Program-made: the position numbers and the translations under genes
Origin: a virus
IMG/VR virus record: IMGVR_UViG_3300008111_000005
Coordinates: 1 to 64,000 of that record
DNA: 64,000 nucleotides
Direction: 5' to 3' (one strand)
Notes under the pieces: generated by a model
Databases searched by the model: none
What the model was told of the DNA's origin: nothing
The model's input: the letters and a program-made list of their open reading frames with translations, nothing else
Shown here: positions 22,521 to 30,012 of the stretch, in pieces
How the letters are laid out: every line of letters begins with the position of its first letter
Numbering within the stretch: the first letter of the stretch is position 1

Positions 22521-23409
22521 TATAAAACCGTTCTAATTCTTTTGGAAAGTGTTGTGTTGCAATTTGTCTAAACTCATCTTTACGATCAATACTGGACACT
22601 AAATCATTTAGGTATTTGTTGTTTTGTTGATGATTCTCACAAACTAATATACCGTCCAATACATACTGCTGCACAGGAAGTTTTTTGGATTCTCGTAACA
22701 CTTGTGCACAAGTTAATACATAGGTATCTTCCAATCCGTAGTGACCGAATGATTCGGGTATTCCTGTTACTTTCAACAGTTTATTACTGATAACGGTTCC
22801 CCACCCACCAGCAGCTTTAAATGTATTGATTGGTCGAACCGCAACCCCAGTATCTCGTAATCCCAGATCAAATACATTTGCTGTTAGATTATCATTTAAT
22901 TCTCTGGACAATAAATCGTCATGTACCAACACATCCCACGTAGTGTCCCACTGTCGTGTTATCTGTGGAGTTACTACATAGTAATCCACTCCACTATTTT
23001 TTATGGCTTTTACTGCATTACCAAGGTATCCAAGAAATCTGTCACCGAAGAATAAATCATTGTCCATCCACAAAGTAAAATCGTAATCATCTACATATTT
23101 TAATGTATGTCGTCGTTGCGAAACACAGCCAAGTATTTCTGATTTGTATTCTATTCTAAATGTACTATCTGATGATTCCCAGGTACATAACGAACTTACT
23201 ATATCAGAGAATTTATTAGCAAAATAAACTTGTGGTAGTTTTGAAGTTGACCAATCAATCATTTCATCACTTAAACATAATGTGATATCAAATGTGTATT
23301 CCACATCCTCTGGTATCCATTCCGCGTTACGACGAAGATTATATAAAGTTAGATGTAAATTATCAATTTCGTGTGGTAATACAAAAATAGAAATTAAACC
23401 TTTGGTCAT
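22495..23409 (-). CDS. Putative GT-A glycosyltransferase
   Basis: WMDNDL DxD motif, GHYGLEDT. Confidence 0.6.
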   Translation of the reverse strand: MTKGLISIFVLPHEIDNLHLTLYNLRRNAEWIPEDVEYTFDITLCLSDEMIDWSTSKLPQVYFANKFSDIVSSLCTWESSDSTFRIEYKSEILGCVSQRRHTLKYVDDYDFTLWMDNDLFFGDRFLGYLGNAVKAIKNSGVDYYVVTPQITRQWDTTWDVLVHDDLLSRELNDNLTANVFDLGLRDTGVAVRPINTFKAAGGWGTVISNKLLKVTGIPESFGHYGLEDTYVLTCAQVLRESKKLPVQQYVLDGILVCENHQQNNKYLNDLVSSIDRKDEFRQIATQHFPKELERFYNENILQNK

Positions 23410-24065
23410 ACCTTTATTCTCTGAACCACACCCACTCCCCAATCAGCTTCTCCACGACCAAACCATTCAACTGAGAAAATATCTGTGTCAATTGCATCTA
23501 ACAATGCCACTGGACCTGGGTGGTAGTTTGTATCGTGGAATGCCATCACTCCGTTTGGAATCATCTTTTCCCAATACTTCCATTCTTTGATTACTTGATT
23601 GACAGAATGCCATCCATCCACGAACATAAAGTCAATTTGTTCATGACCGTACCATTCCATCAATTGATACAAGCTTTCATAGTTGGCGGAATCACCTTGA
23701 ATTGTAAATATATTATTTTCTATACTATTCAAATATGTTTTGGGTTTAAGATCCATTCCAACATACATGCAGTCTGTTGGTTTGATACTGAGTAATGTGT
23801 TCGTGGAGGAAACACCACCACATTCATCTACACCAATTTCAACTATTAATTTAGGTTGGTGGGGTAATTTATTAAATGCATATTTTAATGCTTCGTGATT
23901 AAGTGACGAAAAATGTACATTGGGTGAAGCATCAAAGTCACCTAACCAATCGGTATCATTGGAAATGCTAGGTTCCAGAGAGGGAAGATATTTTAGTCCA
24001 TAAATATCTGTGGGTAACTTGGTTACCTTTGATAAAATATCATTCGTTCTGTCAAGTAAATTCAT
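23406..24065 (-). CDS. Class I SAM-dependent methyltransferase
   Basis: IVEIGV, IDFMFVDGWHS, GVMAFHD. Confidence 0.85.
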   Translation of the reverse strand: MNLLDRTNDILSKVTKLPTDIYGLKYLPSLEPSISNDTDWLGDFDASPNVHFSSLNHEALKYAFNKLPHQPKLIVEIGVDECGGVSSTNTLLSIKPTDCMYVGMDLKPKTYLNSIENNIFTIQGDSANYESLYQLMEWYGHEQIDFMFVDGWHSVNQVIKEWKYWEKMIPNGVMAFHDTNYHPGPVALLDAIDTDIFSVEWFGRGEADWGVGVVQRIKV

Positions 24066-24074
24066 AGTATTCTC

Positions 24075-25304
24075 TTAGAAAATTCTGTATTGTAAATCAG
24101 CGTTGACTGCTTTGTATCCCCACTTTTTAACAGCTGCGTCATATTCTGCTCCGTGGTTACCATCAATTGCTTGACGCATTGCCAATCCACCGGCGAGTGT
24201 ACCCATTGGATGTCCATGCATTGCACCACCAACATTTGCCATCCAGTTATGACTATCAAGTAATCCGTTAATGTGCTGCACCAATCCAGGATGCATTCCA
24301 CAACTGAGTGCGGGGATAACATTGTAGTTCCACAACACCTTCAAGGCGTCTTGTAGTTCTGTGTCATCCTGATTCATATACCCACCAATCATACCTGCGT
24401 GGATAGAGTCTGCACCAGACCACCCTGCAATCTTACAGATAACGGGCCAGTAGATATGATTCGGAGCACGACGGTCAGTGAAGAATTTATCCCCAGACTT
24501 CTGAAAGTGAATCCACAGATTAGGATTCTGTTTACGGATTGCACGATATGCACCCAACCCACTCCACACATTAATATGAACACCCAATCCACCTTCATCC
24601 GAAACGAATTGTGCTCGTTGTAGTGCGTACGGACTGTCACCATTAATACAGAATGTGTACATTACATTCGGGGCGTTATTCGCCAACCAGTTGGTGATAA
24701 GTGGAACTCTCTTTGTCAACGGACAATGTGCCGGACTACCAAGGAGTTCATCTTCTTTAATAAAGTTTACACCACCATATACCATTTCCTTCACGGCTTC
24801 TAACAATACTTCTGGACTCATTCCAACCTTGGGTTTGATAATACCACCGAAGAATGGTTTGCCCTCGACACCATTAAACTTACGGAATCCATCAATACCA
24901 TATGCTGGTTTCAATGTAAACTGTTGTTCAATATGTGCAGGTAGTGTTACGTCCAATACATGACATTGCTCAATTTCCAGAATGTCTACTTGACCACCGG
25001 CGATGTGGCAGAGGATTTGTGAGATACCATCTTCTTCTAAGTCTAGATTTTCTAGTGGAAATGCGATATCAACTTCACCGGAAAACTTCGACTTTAATTC
25101 ATTTTCATCAGCGAGAACAAAACAACTGTGGTCACGAAACATCTGGTCAGTTTCCCATACACTACGATTGTTTGGATTACCGATGCTTTGACCAATTGCC
25201 AAATTCCACGCGGCATCTCGTAGTGAAGTTTTCCCTGCAAGGAAGTACTTAACTATAAAATATTTGGATAAATCAATATCTCTTGTAAAAATATTTACGC
25301 TCAT
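24075..25304 (-). CDS. RuBisCO-like protein (form IV-like, non-carboxylating)
   Basis: GGIIKPKVG, GGVNFIKEDE (carbamylation motif), IHAG, LSCGMH, NVGGAMHGHPMG; loop-6 Lys replaced (GGYM). Confidence 0.9.
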   Translation of the reverse strand: MSVNIFTRDIDLSKYFIVKYFLAGKTSLRDAAWNLAIGQSIGNPNNRSVWETDQMFRDHSCFVLADENELKSKFSGEVDIAFPLENLDLEEDGISQILCHIAGGQVDILEIEQCHVLDVTLPAHIEQQFTLKPAYGIDGFRKFNGVEGKPFFGGIIKPKVGMSPEVLLEAVKEMVYGGVNFIKEDELLGSPAHCPLTKRVPLITNWLANNAPNVMYTFCINGDSPYALQRAQFVSDEGGLGVHINVWSGLGAYRAIRKQNPNLWIHFQKSGDKFFTDRRAPNHIYWPVICKIAGWSGADSIHAGMIGGYMNQDDTELQDALKVLWNYNVIPALSCGMHPGLVQHINGLLDSHNWMANVGGAMHGHPMGTLAGGLAMRQAIDGNHGAEYDAAVKKWGYKAVNADLQYRIF

Positions 25305-25633
25305 TGTTTGTCTGTGACCTCGTATTTGTCGCCTATGACGGACGGTAATTTAACAACAATTAATTCACAATCTTCTAAAAATTCTGGGTCTGCTATTTCA
25401 TACGGAAATATAGTAAATATATCTCCTGTTGTCAATAGCTGTCCTTGTATTCGCATCTTGCCACGAATTAAATAGTTAATTTCTATAGCCCTCTTGTGAT
25501 AATGCTTACCCCAGATTTCACCTTTTTTATGACGAAGATATCCGACTTCAAAATCACTGGTCATCAATACGGATGGTGTAAAGTTTCCAATAAACCATCC
25601 ACGAGTCATATCTTCAATTCTTTTTATTTCCAT
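25301..25633 (-). CDS. Small cupin protein
   Basis: RGWFIGNF, HYH....EINY...G cupin motif. Confidence 0.75.
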   Translation of the reverse strand: MEIKRIEDMTRGWFIGNFTPSVLMTSDFEVGYLRHKKGEIWGKHYHKRAIEINYLIRGKMRIQGQLLTTGDIFTIFPYEIADPEFLEDCELIVVKLPSVIGDKYEVTDKQ

Positions 25634-26345
25634 ATAATGCTCTGTATCGTTCAATATCTTCCAAGGTTCCTACTGCATAGTGTTCGGACGGAGTTATATC
25701 GTATACTCGTTTAGTTCCGTCCAGATAGTTGTATGAGGGACCAATATAATATTCACCATTAACAGTGTCTTTCACTTGTTTCATAGTATTCACCGAAGAT
25801 GCGAAATCTTTGCCATACTTCCACCAGTGAATACCATTCAGTGAATAGTTACTAATCACTTCCTTTTCTTTTACCATTGTGAATTTTGGATATTTGTGTT
25901 CTACATTAGCCACCAACGCGTAACTATTTTTAGGCGTGTTAGTTTCGTAGGTCACCACCGCACCAATAGCATCGGTGGTTTTGGTAAACTCAATAAACTT
26001 ATCGGCGTCCCAATGCATGATTTGGTCACAGTTGGTAACTAATAAATCAGTTTCTCCAAAAAATAATTGTGGAGCATGTAACGCCGAAATGGCTGGACCA
26101 TCGGTAAGATAATCAATTTCTACTACAACAGCCTGACCAACGGTTTTACGAATCGCATCACGAAGAGCCACATTCCAATCTTGATTGTTGTATCTACGAA
26201 CAATGAAACAATAATGGCCATCTATGTTCAACGATTCCAATGCCATTTCAATCATAACTTTACCTGGTAATACTTCTACCAGTGGTTTGGGGACCGTGCT
26301 TTTTACACGAGTCCCCTCACCAGCCATTGGAATAATAATATTCAT
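25614..26345 (-). CDS. Sugar-phosphate nucleotidyltransferase-like protein (A)
   Basis: IIIPMAGEGTR, PKPLV, TDGPA, NCDQ, EK, NGEYYI. Confidence 0.85.
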   Translation of the reverse strand: MNIIIPMAGEGTRVKSTVPKPLVEVLPGKVMIEMALESLNIDGHYCFIVRRYNNQDWNVALRDAIRKTVGQAVVVEIDYLTDGPAISALHAPQLFFGETDLLVTNCDQIMHWDADKFIEFTKTTDAIGAVVTYETNTPKNSYALVANVEHKYPKFTMVKEKEVISNYSLNGIHWWKYGKDFASSVNTMKQVKDTVNGEYYIGPSYNYLDGTKRVYDITPSEHYAVGTLEDIERYRALYGNKKN

Positions 26346-26349
26346 TTAA

Positions 26350-27243
26350 TCAAGCAACTGTTGAAGTAGTAAACTGTATGTCTGCGTGCTCACCCAATGA
26401 TTCTGCCGACTTGGTACGCATGAATTCTTCATGTAGTGATTGACCCAACTGGTCCATTTGATTGAAGAACTGCTTACTCAAATCAAGATTCTTGTCAGTT
26501 ACTAATGGAGTATAATCTGCTTGTGGGAAGTCAACCACCGAGTATGTATAATTCCAGTATGAAGCAAATTCCTCCCAACGATTTTCTGCATCAATTAAAT
26601 CCCAAACACGACTACCGATTGTTGGTACGGTGTGATAGTAAATAGATCTCTTTAAGCCATCAAGTGTTCTCATACTACCAGCGATAATGTTTTGGTGACG
26701 TTGGATTTGTTGGTTTGCCAAATATTCCAAGTGTGCATCTGCATCAATTCCAACTTCTTCCATACGTCCTGGAATGATACTAGCGAAGAACACACTTTGA
26801 TAACTCAAAGACTTAATGATGGTATTTGCATCAGAAACACCTGTTACATTTAGATATAACTTACGAAGTTCTGGTGCGTCGGCGATTCGAAGTACATAAC
26901 TGAAATGTGGAATCTTCAATGCCATAGCTGCACCATTACCGTTGAACTGGTCAACATATTGTGCCCATCGAATAATATCTTCTTCTTCCATAACTGAATT
27001 AGGGACTTGTACATATACTAATCCTTCTGGACCTTCACCACGAAGTTCTCCAACAAGTGAGGTCATCTGTGGAACAAGTGTTTCAAATTTATCCAATGTA
27101 TCGCAGTTGACCTTTGCCAATGCGTTTGGATTGGTAGTAATACCAATTACGGAACTACCGTCAATATACTTACCCAACTTGTCCCAAATCTTACGGATAT
27201 AGTCGGTGTCTGCTGTGTCAAAAAAGAATGTTGGTTGTGACAT
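26350..27243 (-). CDS. Divergent transaldolase/fructose-6-phosphate aldolase family protein
   Basis: FFDTAD, GITTNP, Schiff-base LKIP, NVT, GRM, GSMR. Confidence 0.8.
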   Translation of the reverse strand: MSQPTFFFDTADTDYIRKIWDKLGKYIDGSSVIGITTNPNALAKVNCDTLDKFETLVPQMTSLVGELRGEGPEGLVYVQVPNSVMEEEDIIRWAQYVDQFNGNGAAMALKIPHFSYVLRIADAPELRKLYLNVTGVSDANTIIKSLSYQSVFFASIIPGRMEEVGIDADAHLEYLANQQIQRHQNIIAGSMRTLDGLKRSIYYHTVPTIGSRVWDLIDAENRWEEFASYWNYTYSVVDFPQADYTPLVTDKNLDLSKQFFNQMDQLGQSLHEEFMRTKSAESLGEHADIQFTTSTVA

Positions 27244-27623
27244 TATGGATTCTCCACGGTTCTTGGTCCTTTGTTTATTCTATCTTTTATTGCTAAGATT
27301 GAGGTTTCCCAATCTGTATGTCTGTGTACCGCATCATCTATTATTAAATCGGCGTGAGGTTTACTCCACCAAATTTCATCATATGGAATATCCCATTTTT
27401 CTAACCAATCAAACAATACTTTACCTTGTAACTTTAATACCCTTCCTTGATTCCCACCACCAGTTTTCATATGTCGTGCCGTATGAAGAATAATGGTGTG
27501 CCCTTCTTCTTTTAACCATCGTAACGTTTCTAATGCTTCTGGAAACGGCTTGACATCTGCGTAGGTCATATCACCAGTTTTATTTTCACAGATAGTATTA
27601 TCTATATCAAAACAAAATATCAT
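27243..27623 (-). CDS. HAD phosphatase, EcbF/BcbF capsule-biosynthesis type
   Basis: FDIDNTIC, HTARHM, WL....IPYDEI..KP, IDD. Confidence 0.85.
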   Translation of the reverse strand: MIFCFDIDNTICENKTGDMTYADVKPFPEALETLRWLKEEGHTIILHTARHMKTGGGNQGRVLKLQGKVLFDWLEKWDIPYDEIWWSKPHADLIIDDAVHRHTDWETSILAIKDRINKGPRTVENP

Positions 27624-28390
27624 AATGTACCCTCAAAGGCTTTTACATCTGCTGGTGTACCAAGAGGTACAACATCAGTAACGGTATGTACATATACTGG
27701 AATCCCTATACTCACATTATACGAGGCCACCATACTCATATAATACTCTGCGTTTCCATTAAACTCAACTGGTTTGTTAAATTCCATAATAAACTTTGCA
27801 TAGTTTGTAAAGAATTGTGTTTGACCAAAGTAGAATATACCAATCATCGTAGGATGGTGAACCCACGAATCATTCTTCTCACGAATACCCACAGCCTTTC
27901 CATCTTCAATTATAACGTTCGACCATTTATTGGGTAGTGATTTGTCTGGATTATCAAAGCATGCTACTGCGACTGCATTACTCTTAAATTTAATACCACG
28001 AATAAAATCATCAACACCATTATGATTATATTTGTTATCGGAATCAAGAACCAATAAGTCATCAGTTTTGTGCCACATACGAGATGCTGCTTGTCTTGCG
28101 GTGTCTAAACTTCCCGAAGTAATTTCTTTAAACGGAATGATTTCTATGTTACGACCGTAAATGGAATATAAAAATTTATCCAATCCAGCATCCAAATGTT
28201 CTTGCAAAACTGCAAAATATAAATGAATGTTACTCGACTGTCCCTTTCCATCGTGACGAATATATGGACATGATTCCGTTGTCCATTGTAAGATTGTCTT
28301 ACCATTTATTTGAATTAATGGTTTGGGGTCTTTGTATCCTTCGTTTACAAAACGTTGACCCCTACCAGCCATTAACACTAAGACGTTCAT
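27620..28390 (-). CDS. Sugar-phosphate nucleotidyltransferase-like protein (B)
   Basis: LMAGRGQRF, PKPLI, DSD, REK, EYYMS, LGTPAD. Confidence 0.85.
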   Translation of the reverse strand: MNVLVLMAGRGQRFVNEGYKDPKPLIQINGKTILQWTTESCPYIRHDGKGQSSNIHLYFAVLQEHLDAGLDKFLYSIYGRNIEIIPFKEITSGSLDTARQAASRMWHKTDDLLVLDSDNKYNHNGVDDFIRGIKFKSNAVAVACFDNPDKSLPNKWSNVIIEDGKAVGIREKNDSWVHHPTMIGIFYFGQTQFFTNYAKFIMEFNKPVEFNGNAEYYMSMVASYNVSIGIPVYVHTVTDVVPLGTPADVKAFEGTL

Positions 28391-29373
28391 AATTCCAATG
28401 CCTCGTTTAATAATCTTATACCTGTGAGGTACATTGCTCGTTGTCTTTCCAGACTATCATAATGACGAGCACACATCCCAATAAAGATGCAGCCTTGGAT
28501 AATTTTTATTTCCTTCTTATTAAACATTGGAAAGAAAATATATTCAAACTCATTCAATGCCCAATCAAGTTCACCGTCATTCTTAATGTCCAATTGATAC
28601 GCATTGCCATTTGCTGTAACCTTAAACTTATCAGTAATAAATGCTTCATACGTTCCATCCAATGAATGATATAGTTTAGCTATATCGTATCGAATATCAC
28701 CGTAATTTCCAAGTTTACCAAATGAACCACGAGGATCTATGAAACGAATAATATTTTTATCTTCACCATATAAAATATTACTAAAACAACAATCACCGTG
28801 TATAAGTGATGGAGTAAAAGTTAACATATTTTGTTCGATGTAATTCTTAATCTGTGGCCAGACTACTTCGAACATGGAGTATTGTTTATTGTTAATGTAT
28901 ACTGAATGTGCACGAACTTGGTCAATAAACAACGAATCAAACTTATCGTGCCACCCAGAATAAAAATTACGGTACTCACGTTCTGTTTTTGTGATGTACA
29001 TATCGTACGCTGCATTACGAATTTCTTCGTCAGTCCACTTAACTCGTGGACTGATGTTAGACCACGACACAAGAATGTTTCGTAAATTAAGGAAAAATTC
29101 AGACCACGACGGCATAATTTTGTCACCAAACAAATAATTACCAACGTTTGGATAACTATACAATTCCAAATCCATCCAAAAGTCTGCTATTAACGGTTCT
29201 ACGTGATCGAGTAATCTTGGAAAAAATACTGCTTGTGATGGATGATACTTTTGTAATTTTACATAATATAATATCTCATCACGGAGTCGTTCGGTGGAAC
29301 TTAATTTCCGAACAACTCCTCGCGTTTCATCTACTTCAAATCTATTGTATGCTCGTGTGACTAATTTTTCCAT
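28387..29373 (-). CDS. Aminoglycoside/choline-kinase-fold sugar kinase
   Basis: HGDCCFSNIL, FIDPRG, GDIRYDIAKL. Confidence 0.8.
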   Translation of the reverse strand: MEKLVTRAYNRFEVDETRGVVRKLSSTERLRDEILYYVKLQKYHPSQAVFFPRLLDHVEPLIADFWMDLELYSYPNVGNYLFGDKIMPSWSEFFLNLRNILVSWSNISPRVKWTDEEIRNAAYDMYITKTEREYRNFYSGWHDKFDSLFIDQVRAHSVYINNKQYSMFEVVWPQIKNYIEQNMLTFTPSLIHGDCCFSNILYGEDKNIIRFIDPRGSFGKLGNYGDIRYDIAKLYHSLDGTYEAFITDKFKVTANGNAYQLDIKNDGELDWALNEFEYIFFPMFNKKEIKIIQGCIFIGMCARHYDSLERQRAMYLTGIRLLNEALEL

Positions 29374-29376
29374 AAA

Positions 29377-30012
29377 TCATCCCACTTGGAATGGTGGTTC
29401 CCATCCTGTTTCGTTACAATATTCAATGACTTCATCAATAGAAATCGTATTCAATGCCCATCGTTCTGCGTAGGGAATGAGGTCTGGGACTCGTGCCATA
29501 CTACCATCATCATTCATAATCTCACAGATGATTGCAACTGGTTTCGTTCCAGCCATCATAGCAAGTTGAACAGATGCTTCGGTATGACCCTGCCGTTCCT
29601 TCAACAAACCAGGACGGGGACGGAGTGGAAACAAGTGACCTGGGTATGCAAGTTGTTCTGGTTTGGTATTTTCATCTAGTACCAATCCAATCGTGACCAT
29701 ACGATCTTCTACACTTACACCAGTAGTGACACCATCACGTGCGTCAATACTGACGGTGAATGGAGTCGAAAACTTATCGTTATTGTTAGATGGACTCATA
29801 GGAATTTCTAAACGATCTAACATAAACTTTGGTGTAGGAATACACATGATACCTCGTGCTTCCTTTGCGATAAAAGCCAGTGTTTCTGGTGTTGCTTTTT
29901 CCGCTGCAATCATCAAGTCACCTTCATTTTCTCTATCGTAACTATCTACGACGATGATTGGTTTTCCGTTGCGGATATCTTCTAATACTGTTTTAATTTT
30001 TTCTGATAACAT
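29377..30012 (-). CDS. ribB: 3,4-dihydroxy-2-butanone-4-phosphate synthase
   Basis: DRENEGD, FTVSID, TTGVS..DR, PGHLFPL, RQGHTE, ICEI; no fused GTP cyclohydrolase. Confidence 0.95.
   Translation of the reverse strand: MLSEKIKTVLEDIRNGKPIIVVDSYDRENEGDLMIAAEKATPETLAFIAKEARGIMCIPTPKFMLDRLEIPMSPSNNNDKFSTPFTVSIDARDGVTTGVSVEDRMVTIGLVLDENTKPEQLAYPGHLFPLRPRPGLLKERQGHTEASVQLAMMAGTKPVAIICEIMNDDGSMARVPDLIPYAERWALNTISIDEVIEYCNETGWEPPFQVG

Follow-up and report, generated by a model that had tools for sequence, protein, structure and literature searches.

The window analysed here comprises 64,000 nucleotides of the IMG/VR record of a large uncultured phage; the record is 104,871 bases long and estimated to be 55% complete. 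The family-B DNA polymerase encoded in the record is most similar to that of Microcystis phage Mel-JY01 (43%), followed by those of T4-like cyanophages (33%). The minus strand of the window contains a single, intact open reading frame for a RuBisCO-like protein (RLP), which starts with an ATG at position 25304 and ends with a stop codon at position 24075. Two further genes of the same strand, encoding a small cupin and a sugar-phosphate nucleotidyltransferase, adjoin it (Table 1). The start of the RLP gene and the stop of the cupin gene overlap in the sequence ATGA, and the start of the cupin gene overlaps the 3′ end of the nucleotidyltransferase gene by 20 nucleotides. The genes around this cassette encode glycosyltransferases of the GT2, GT11 and GT4-like types, an SDR epimerase and a methyltransferase, and an insert of five genes stands between the cassette and the glycosyltransferases. 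A scan of the window against Rfam gave no matches.

Table 1 Genes in and around the RLP cassette of the window.
Feature	Position	Strand	Basis of assignment
Methyltransferase, 219 residues, directly downstream of the RLP gene	23406..24065	-	Pfam Methyltransf_24, CmcI-like
RuBisCO-like protein (RLP), 409 residues	24075..25304	-	Pfam RuBisCO_large, residue table, clade support
Small cupin, ~110 residues from ATG	25301..25633	-	Metal motif, PDB profile, model
Sugar-phosphate nucleotidyltransferase, 243 residues	25614..26345	-	Pfam NTP_transferase/NTP_transf_3
Lineage-specific insert, five genes	26350..30012	-	Pfam and NCBIfam; only in the 4–7 closest loci of 80
Transaldolase-like gene (insert)	26350-27243	-	Weak, Pfam E 0.0024
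HAD phosphatase (insert)	27243-27623	-	Pfam/NCBIfam
Second nucleotidyltransferase (insert)	27620-28390	-	Pfam/NCBIfam
APH-fold kinase (insert)	28387-29373	-	Pfam/NCBIfam
RibB DHBP synthase (insert)	29377-30012	-	Pfam/NCBIfam
Two tandem DUF7796-like paralogues, 260 and 256 residues	30896..32445	-	Weak Pfam DUF7796

The RLP is a member of the RuBisCO large-subunit superfamily. It matches Pfam RuBisCO_large (PF00016) with 115.8 bits, above the cut-off of 30.1, and the superfamily motifs K-x-K and K-D/E-D-E are present as KPK and KEDE, aligned to those of form I and form III. However, none of the NCBIfam equivalog cut-offs is reached: the scores for bona fide RuBisCO are 153 for form III (cut-off 497), 135 for form I (438), and 97 for form II (489), those for MtnW/YkrW are 94 (409) and 71 (514), and that for OiaX is 115 bits (700). 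The form III score is the highest that the protein obtains in NCBIfam. The solved structure that it matches best is that of an uncharacterised RLP (3nwr, E 7e-32), and its best matches in the PDB and in plasmids are ~28–31% identical. A tblastn search of 50,697 deposited phage genomes found no match. More than 100 clusters at 75–88% identity were retrieved in a whole-database search, and an exhaustive search of representatives returned 870 matches. Within the clade of the window RLP their scores range from 451 down to ~160 bits, and beyond it they reach a plateau at no more than 142 bits. The automatic names given to the relatives in their sources read ‘ribulose-bisphosphate carboxylase large chain’.

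The active site was compared in a MAFFT L-INS-i alignment with four references: the annotated form I large subunit of Sinorhizobium, a form III protein (P0175) with an NCBIfam score above the form III threshold, the annotated MtnW of Bacillus, and the annotated OiaX of Rhizobium. The alignment of residues was trusted because the form I motifs have constant offsets from the spinach numbering, and the known lysine of MtnW falls at the position of N123. In form I numbering, with the residue of the window RLP after the slash, the retained residues are K175/K157, K177/K159, K201/K183, D203/D185, and E204/E186, together with H327/H302, S379/S334, G381, and G403 and G404/G359 and G360. The replaced residues are E60 (G38), N123 (G104), H294 (Q268), R295 (K269), K334 (Y309), and G380 (C335), and further changes, which the initial annotation had not named, affect T65 (N43), W66 (P44), D202 (E184), and H298 (D272). 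An invariant glutamine accompanies each of the lost acid/base residues, in the pairs G38-Q39 and G104-Q105 and as Q268 itself. The alignment reproduced every retained and replaced residue that had been named in the initial annotation.

All these positions are invariant in 14 aligned viral copies of the RLP, down to 51% identity. Among 44 members of the clade with identities down to ~35%, the residues corresponding to K175, K177, K201, D203, and E204 are each present in all 44, as are G60, Q294, and Y334, while N65, G123, and C380 are each present in 43. Since the set is essentially invariant over this range, it has been selected and is not the outcome of decay. The combination of glutamine at position 294 with the retained K177 is specific to the clade among the sequences compared; the other RLPs in the comparison all have H294 and lack K177.

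Mutagenesis has established that E60, N123, H294, and K334 are needed for carboxylation. The window RLP and 43–44 of the 44 clade members have G, G, Q, and Y instead, which supports the reading of the protein as non-carboxylating, with an intact Mg/carbamate core for enolisation. The initial annotation had regarded the P1 phosphate site as seemingly intact alongside this core. The core is indeed retained, but the P1 site has not been left untouched: T65 and W66, its ligands from the N domain, have become N and P, and the binding mode of the RLP is consequently uncertain. The carboxylation and P2-site residues had likewise been described as gone; this applies to the former, whereas the P2 site is remodelled, with R295 replaced by K, H298 replaced by D, and H327 retained. 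The remodelling makes a monophosphate substrate plausible, but not more than that.

These observations bear on the idea that the protein is a true CO2-fixing RuBisCO, or else a decayed, non-catalytic relic. The automatic names of the relatives and the rank of form III among the NCBIfam scores speak for a carboxylase, but all four carboxylation residues are replaced and the form III score remains far from its cut-off. A relic is at odds with substitutions that are invariant over 44 sequences and with open reading frames that are intact in more than 100 clusters. Both readings are highly improbable.

The position of the RLP in the superfamily was examined in maximum-likelihood trees of 123 sequences, among which there was no labelled DeepYkr or Photo RLP. 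Deep relations between clades are unresolved in these trees because they were obtained by quick LG+G4 searches with SH-aLRT support only. The phage-type RLPs form a single monophyletic branch (SH-aLRT 99), which falls outside a 36-member clade (support 97) containing both MtnW and OiaX. MtnW itself falls in a clade of 12 members to which the window RLP does not belong, and the window RLP is also in a separate clade from OiaX. The form III sequences make up a grade towards the form I outgroup. The alignment and tree, which had been proposed as a check on the initial annotation, thus place the RLP within no characterised clade, in agreement with its NCBIfam scores.

The clade itself is not new. 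Jaffe, Castelle, Dupont and Banfield (2019, Mol Biol Evol) described ‘form IV-like’ RuBisCO-related proteins of phages and Beckwithbacteria, in which ~80 IMG/VR phage sequences, some of them from myoviruses, group with those of Beckwithbacteria; the set is an outgroup to the other RLPs, apart from canonical form IV, and its function was left open (PMC6389311). The branch studied here agrees with that description: the window comes from an IMG/VR phage contig, related genes occur in 80 viral loci, a copy from a Beckwithbacteria metagenome-assembled genome (MAG) with 48% identity lies inside the branch, and the branch is separate from the MtnW/OiaX clade. By these features, the window RLP is a new member of a published, functionally uncharacterised clade, and the new form IV subclade that had been suspected from the sequence is real but was already published. 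The linkage to nucleotidyltransferase, cupin, and GDPD-like genes and the gene fusions reported below are not described in the available portion of that paper (PMC6389311). Searches of the literature turned up no functional study of the phage RLP clade later than 2019.

The open reading frame of the cupin was listed from a TTG at position 25654, with a length of 117 residues; its homologues begin at the ATG at position 25633. The protein has the textbook cupin metal motif G-x5-H-x-H-x4-E-x6-G, and its profile matches cupins in the PDB; comparison with Pfam Cupin_2 gave no specific similarity. The folds closest to its structural model (pLDDT 84) are those of small mono-cupins, among them KdgF and phosphomannose isomerases of archaea. 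The best PDB profile match of the nucleotidyltransferase is an uncharacterised NDP-sugar pyrophosphorylase (4evw, E 7e-26), followed by mannose-1-phosphate guanylyltransferases, HddC, and RmlA. Related loci share a further conserved protein of 146–148 residues with HRG, EN, ExD, and HD motifs and a weak sequence match to GDPD. The top structural matches of its model (pLDDT 92) are nearly all GDPD barrels (probability 0.97–0.99, TM ~0.5), and the protein can be read as a putative miniature GDPD-like phosphodiesterase. Its family is an orphan one and mostly viral. No GDPD-like gene was found anywhere in the 105-kb record from which the window derives.

The linkage of these genes was assessed in 80 related viral loci, in which the neighbours from the window were sought by tblastn (E ≤ 1e-5, coverage of at least 50%) and further families were obtained by de novo clustering. 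The nucleotidyltransferase and the cupin, the latter searched as the 117-residue frame, were each matched in 76 loci. Clustering placed the 146–148-residue protein in 62 loci, the DUF7796-like proteins (260 residues) in 44, and the methyltransferase in 22. After dereplication to 55 RLPs with less than 90% identity, the corresponding numbers are 50 for the nucleotidyltransferase, 44 for the GDPD-like protein, 42 for the cupin, which is an undercount due to the calling of open reading frames, 28 for the DUF7796-like proteins, and 14 for the methyltransferase. The conserved partners of the RLP are thus the nucleotidyltransferase, the ~110-residue cupin, and usually the miniature GDPD-like phosphodiesterase. 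The order and orientation of the genes differ among loci; however, the linkage persists. The methyltransferase, which lies downstream of the RLP gene where it is present, is a facultative member of the module. The DUF7796-like paralogues, which often accompany the cassette, are candidate transferases; their neighbours in the atlas are viral, one of them being automatically named as a capsular polysaccharide biosynthesis protein, and a PDB profile search with the family gave no match.

The cassette is not restricted to viruses. The same set occurs in loci of Patescibacteria, Saccharibacteria, Beckwithbacteria, and other MAGs, and a complete Verrucomicrobiae chromosome of 2.28 Mb carries the RLP, nucleotidyltransferase, and cupin genes amid ordinary cellular genes, with a transposase ~7 kb upstream. 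In the one cellular order that was sampled, an alphaproteobacterial one, the RLP gene is present in 1 of 187 genomes, and its occurrence in cells is therefore sporadic.

Two natural fusions join members of the cassette. A 667-residue protein (P0126) is a fusion of an RLP, 47% identical to that of the window and with its signature motifs, to a C-terminal domain that aligns with the nucleotidyltransferase family of the cassette (hhalign probability 100%, E 6e-54). On contig L064, which carries the label of a giant-virus MAG, the nucleotidyltransferase frame has a C-terminal cupin (hhalign probability 99.5%, E 9e-23). The fusions therefore tie the RLP, the nucleotidyltransferase, and the cupin to one pathway, and, like the linkage, they indicate that a pathway is shared rather than which chemistry it performs. 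The second fusion has the architecture of type II PMI/GMP enzymes of the AlgA/XanB type, bifunctional phosphomannose isomerases/GDP-mannose pyrophosphorylases with an N-terminal nucleotidyltransferase and a C-terminal cupin. In addition, the fold of the window cupin is near those of small phosphomannose isomerases, and the PDB matches of the transferase include mannose-1-phosphate guanylyltransferases. However, type II PMI/GMP has no RLP or GDPD partner, and the sequence likeness is at the level of superfamilies only.

An RLP gene beside a cupin gene has a characterised precedent. In the MTA-isoprenoid shunt of Rhodospirillum rubrum and Rhodopseudomonas palustris, the DeepYkr RLP, a 5-methylthioribulose-1-P 1,3-isomerase that acts on a RuBP-like monophosphate by enolisation, is encoded next to a cupin methylsulfurylase (PMC5893883). 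The phage-type pair could accordingly belong to a salvage route for MTA or 5′-deoxyadenosine, in which a 5-substituted ribulose-1-phosphate would be isomerised by the RLP and then processed by the cupin, with DXP or a deoxy-pentulose phosphate as conceivable products. The residue pattern would suit a RuBP-like monophosphate bound through P1 only, and the Bacillus mtn operon combines the same four folds as the window, namely an RLP, an APH-type kinase, a HAD phosphatase, and a cupin, with the kinase and phosphatase of the window sharing the folds of MtnK and MtnX. The partner proteins of the two systems, however, have no specific homology. When the cupin, HAD phosphatase, and kinase of the window were considered as homologues of the Bacillus proteins MtnD, MtnX, and MtnK, the resemblance was limited to the fold: the hhalign probability for the cupin and MtnD is 1.4%, no similarity was found between the HAD phosphatase and MtnX, and the kinase has the catalytic loop alone in common with MtnK.

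The phage clade lies outside the clade of MtnW and DeepYkr-like neighbours, and glutamine at position 294 with a retained K177 is found only in the phage type. The DeepYkr shunt has no nucleotidyltransferase or phosphodiesterase partner, whereas MtnA and MtnP were not found in the phages; a search of five RLP phage records, including one that is 92% complete, yielded no gene of the MtnA/e2b2 family (PF01008). A salvage route would also leave the fusion to the nucleotidyltransferase unexplained, and it is unlikely. The residues themselves separate the window RLP from the enzymes that it resembles. MtnW (YkrW), the 2,3-diketo-5-methylthiopentyl-1-phosphate enolase, shares glycine in place of E60 but has a lysine at the position of N123, where the window RLP has glycine. 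OiaX, the 3-oxo-isoapionate-4-phosphate decarboxylase, shares glycine in place of N123; however, it has H294, R295, and K334 and lacks K177. OiaX is catabolic and, unlike the window RLP, is encoded beside four-carbon acid-sugar kinases; OiaX and related acid-sugar RLPs, which include 3nwr, supply the PDB and plasmid matches at ~28–31% identity.

The five-gene insert is a peculiarity of the lineage of the window. In the 80 loci, tblastn detected RibB, the transaldolase-like protein, and the kinase in four each, all of them relatives with 88–100% identical RLPs, and the HAD phosphatase in seven. PDB sequence searches with the kinase and the transaldolase-like protein gave nothing useful. The lineage has no GDPD-like gene near the RLP gene, and the HAD phosphatase may take the place of the GDPD-like phosphodiesterase.

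RibB may hint at the substrate of the RLP. The initial annotation had favoured the enolisation or isomerisation of a monophosphorylated short ketose, and the RibB product, 3,4-dihydroxy-2-butanone 4-phosphate, or its 1-phospho isomer, would be such a compound, the supply of which would be boosted by the phage enzyme. RibB is intact and stands alone (247 bits) in the same operon, no other riboflavin genes were seen in the island, and a carbonyl shift in a four-carbon keto-phosphate would suit a site that forms an enediolate. However, with a presence in no more than 4 of the 80 loci, RibB is not a general partner of the RLP, and the cassettes of Verrucomicrobiae, CPR, and giant-virus-like genomes have no adjacent RibB. 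Because RibB of the host could supply the compound, these findings do no more than weaken the idea, which is quite unlikely to be correct; of the original proposal, the enolisation core holds, while the link to the RibB product is weak.

To our knowledge, every characterised member of the superfamily begins its reaction by enolising a keto-phosphate at a site with a carbamylated lysine and Mg2+. On the basis of the conserved residue pattern, the placement of the clade, the linkage, and the two fusions, we infer that, by a modest balance of probability, the RLP is a non-carboxylating enzyme of a pathway for nucleotide-activated sugars, in which it isomerises or epimerises a phospho-ketose through Mg/carbamate-dependent enolisation. 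K183, D185, and E186, together with K157 and K159, would provide the carbamylated-lysine/Mg2+ machinery that enolises a 2-keto-3-hydroxy phosphoester in RuBisCO and characterised RLPs. The glycine-rich phosphate cradle, which is retained, would most likely hold the phospho-ketose while the RLP abstracts the alpha proton of this substrate to form an enediolate. The residues for CO2 addition and hydrolysis have given way to three glutamines and a tyrosine, while the enolisation site is intact, which is why enolisation is proposed to be followed by reprotonation, giving an isomer or epimer.

The loss of the CO2-handling residues, together with the linkage and fusion to the nucleotidyltransferase and cupin, suggests that a keto-sugar phosphate is probably reshaped for an unusual activated sugar. 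The RLP product would pass to the cupin, possibly a metal-dependent enzyme of isomerase-like activity, and to a phosphoesterase step, and from there to the nucleotidyltransferase. The phosphoesterase would be the miniature GDPD-like protein in most genomes and the HAD phosphatase in the window. The output would be a sugar, or a unit resembling one, of an unusual kind and activated by a nucleotide, and it would be used by the glycosyltransferases and methyltransferases that the glycan island around the cassette encodes. Two features of the cassette fit this pathway poorly. Nucleotidyltransferases of this family normally require a sugar-1-phosphate, yet neither a mutase nor a kinase is evident in the cassette; furthermore, the phosphodiesterase has no explained role in such a pathway.

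Only the neighbouring genes point to a glycan as the destination, and they vary among loci. It is conceivable that the same chemistry serves instead to supply an activated sugar for phage DNA, comparable to the glucosyl-hmC of T4 and the arabinosyl-hmC of RB69, rather than for a surface or virion glycan. The cassette stands beside gp32 in one locus (L018), and a DUF1599 gene (‘nucleotide modification associated’) marks the end of the island in the window. By contrast, a gene of the thymidylate-synthase family (hydroxymethylase type) is present in only two of five RLP phage records, which are incomplete, the cassette occurs in cellular chromosomes as well, and its neighbours are classic GT2, GT11, and GT4 glycosyltransferases of glycan synthesis. 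DNA is an improbable destination.

Since 2019 it has been an open question what this large viral branch of the RuBisCO superfamily does, and unplaced RuBisCO homologues were reportedly already present in the GOS data of 2007. The invariant signature, the conserved four-gene cassette, and the two natural fusions turn it into an experimentally defined question. It is close to an even possibility that the RLP branch acts on a keto-sugar phosphate in an as yet undescribed reaction of biosynthesis and that, together with the cupin, the miniature phosphodiesterase, and the nucleotidyltransferase, it makes a new nucleotide-activated sugar, which would be used for glycans or possibly for DNA by phages, by giant-virus-like genomes, and by some few bacteria. 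The roles of the superfamily comprise carboxylation, sulfur salvage, and sugar-acid catabolism, and we know of no RLP with a biosynthetic, glycan-building role. If the proposal is correct, a biosynthetic reaction would be added to the RuBisCO superfamily, and metagenomic surveys would no longer list such genes under viral carbon fixation.

The gene for the mini-GDPD-like phosphodiesterase was found in 62 of the 80 viral loci compared, whereas the lineage of the window lacks it and carries instead a HAD family "capsule biosynthesis phosphatase". The presence of the HAD phosphatase in place of the mini-GDPD-like protein may represent a non-orthologous displacement of a phosphoesterase step. The sugar operon of the window also includes a stand-alone RibB, the gene for which is separated by 3 nucleotides from that of an APH-fold kinase; a scan of neighbouring genes in the window showed no further riboflavin genes. 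The first 4000 nucleotides of the window have a GC content of approximately 0.50, against approximately 0.38 in the remainder, and the sign of their GC skew is opposite to that of the rest of the window.

Positions of cassette regions and phosphoesterase and RibB genes
Feature	Sequence	Positions	Remarks
HAD phosphatase	Window	27243-27623	EcbF/BcbF type
RibB (DHBP synthase)	Window	29377-30012	247 bits
Mini-GDPD-like gene	Viral locus L018	11230-11670	Example
Cassette region	Contig L064	11987-20237	
Cassette and surroundings	Chromosome L092	224-1315 and 8001-10227	

The cassette occurs in contig L064, which is 187 kb long and bears the label of a giant-virus metagenome-assembled genome. Its neighbours there encode a TPP-dependent enzyme, a sugar-phosphate cyclase resembling 3-dehydroquinate synthase, a homologue of the RPE65 carotenoid oxygenase, and an ABC1 kinase, with a DUF5767 protein encoded nearby. 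The complete 2.28-Mb chromosome of a member of Verrucomicrobiae (L092) contains genes for the RLP, nucleotidyltransferase, and cupin, in this order, surrounded by cellular genes for an EamA transporter, a lactonase, and a fatty-acid desaturase. A DDE transposase gene positioned approximately 7 kb upstream of this cassette hints that the cassette is mobile. The whole cassette, with an RLP identity of 73%, is also present in a 64-kb contig binned into a Saprospirales (Bacteroidota) metagenome-assembled genome. The neighbours of the cassette in this contig are 96–99% identical to their counterparts in members of the viral locus set, and the contig is probably that of a phage inside the Saprospirales bin, which provides a weak hint that Saprospirales are the host.

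The homologues of the window RLP include fusion proteins. Two of them, P0161 and P0165, are 726 and 742 residues long and combine an IF-2B-family domain, of the ribose-1,5-bisphosphate or MTR-1-P isomerase type, with a RuBisCO part that has high catalytic-domain scores. Each looks like the isomerase–RuBisCO step of the AMP pathway in one polypeptide. The 583-residue-long P0224 is a full RuBisCO-like protein with a TIR domain at its N-terminus (Pfam TIR_2, RuBisCO_large_N, and RuBisCO_large). This fusion suggests that a branch of RLPs other than that of the window belongs in a context of defence or signalling.
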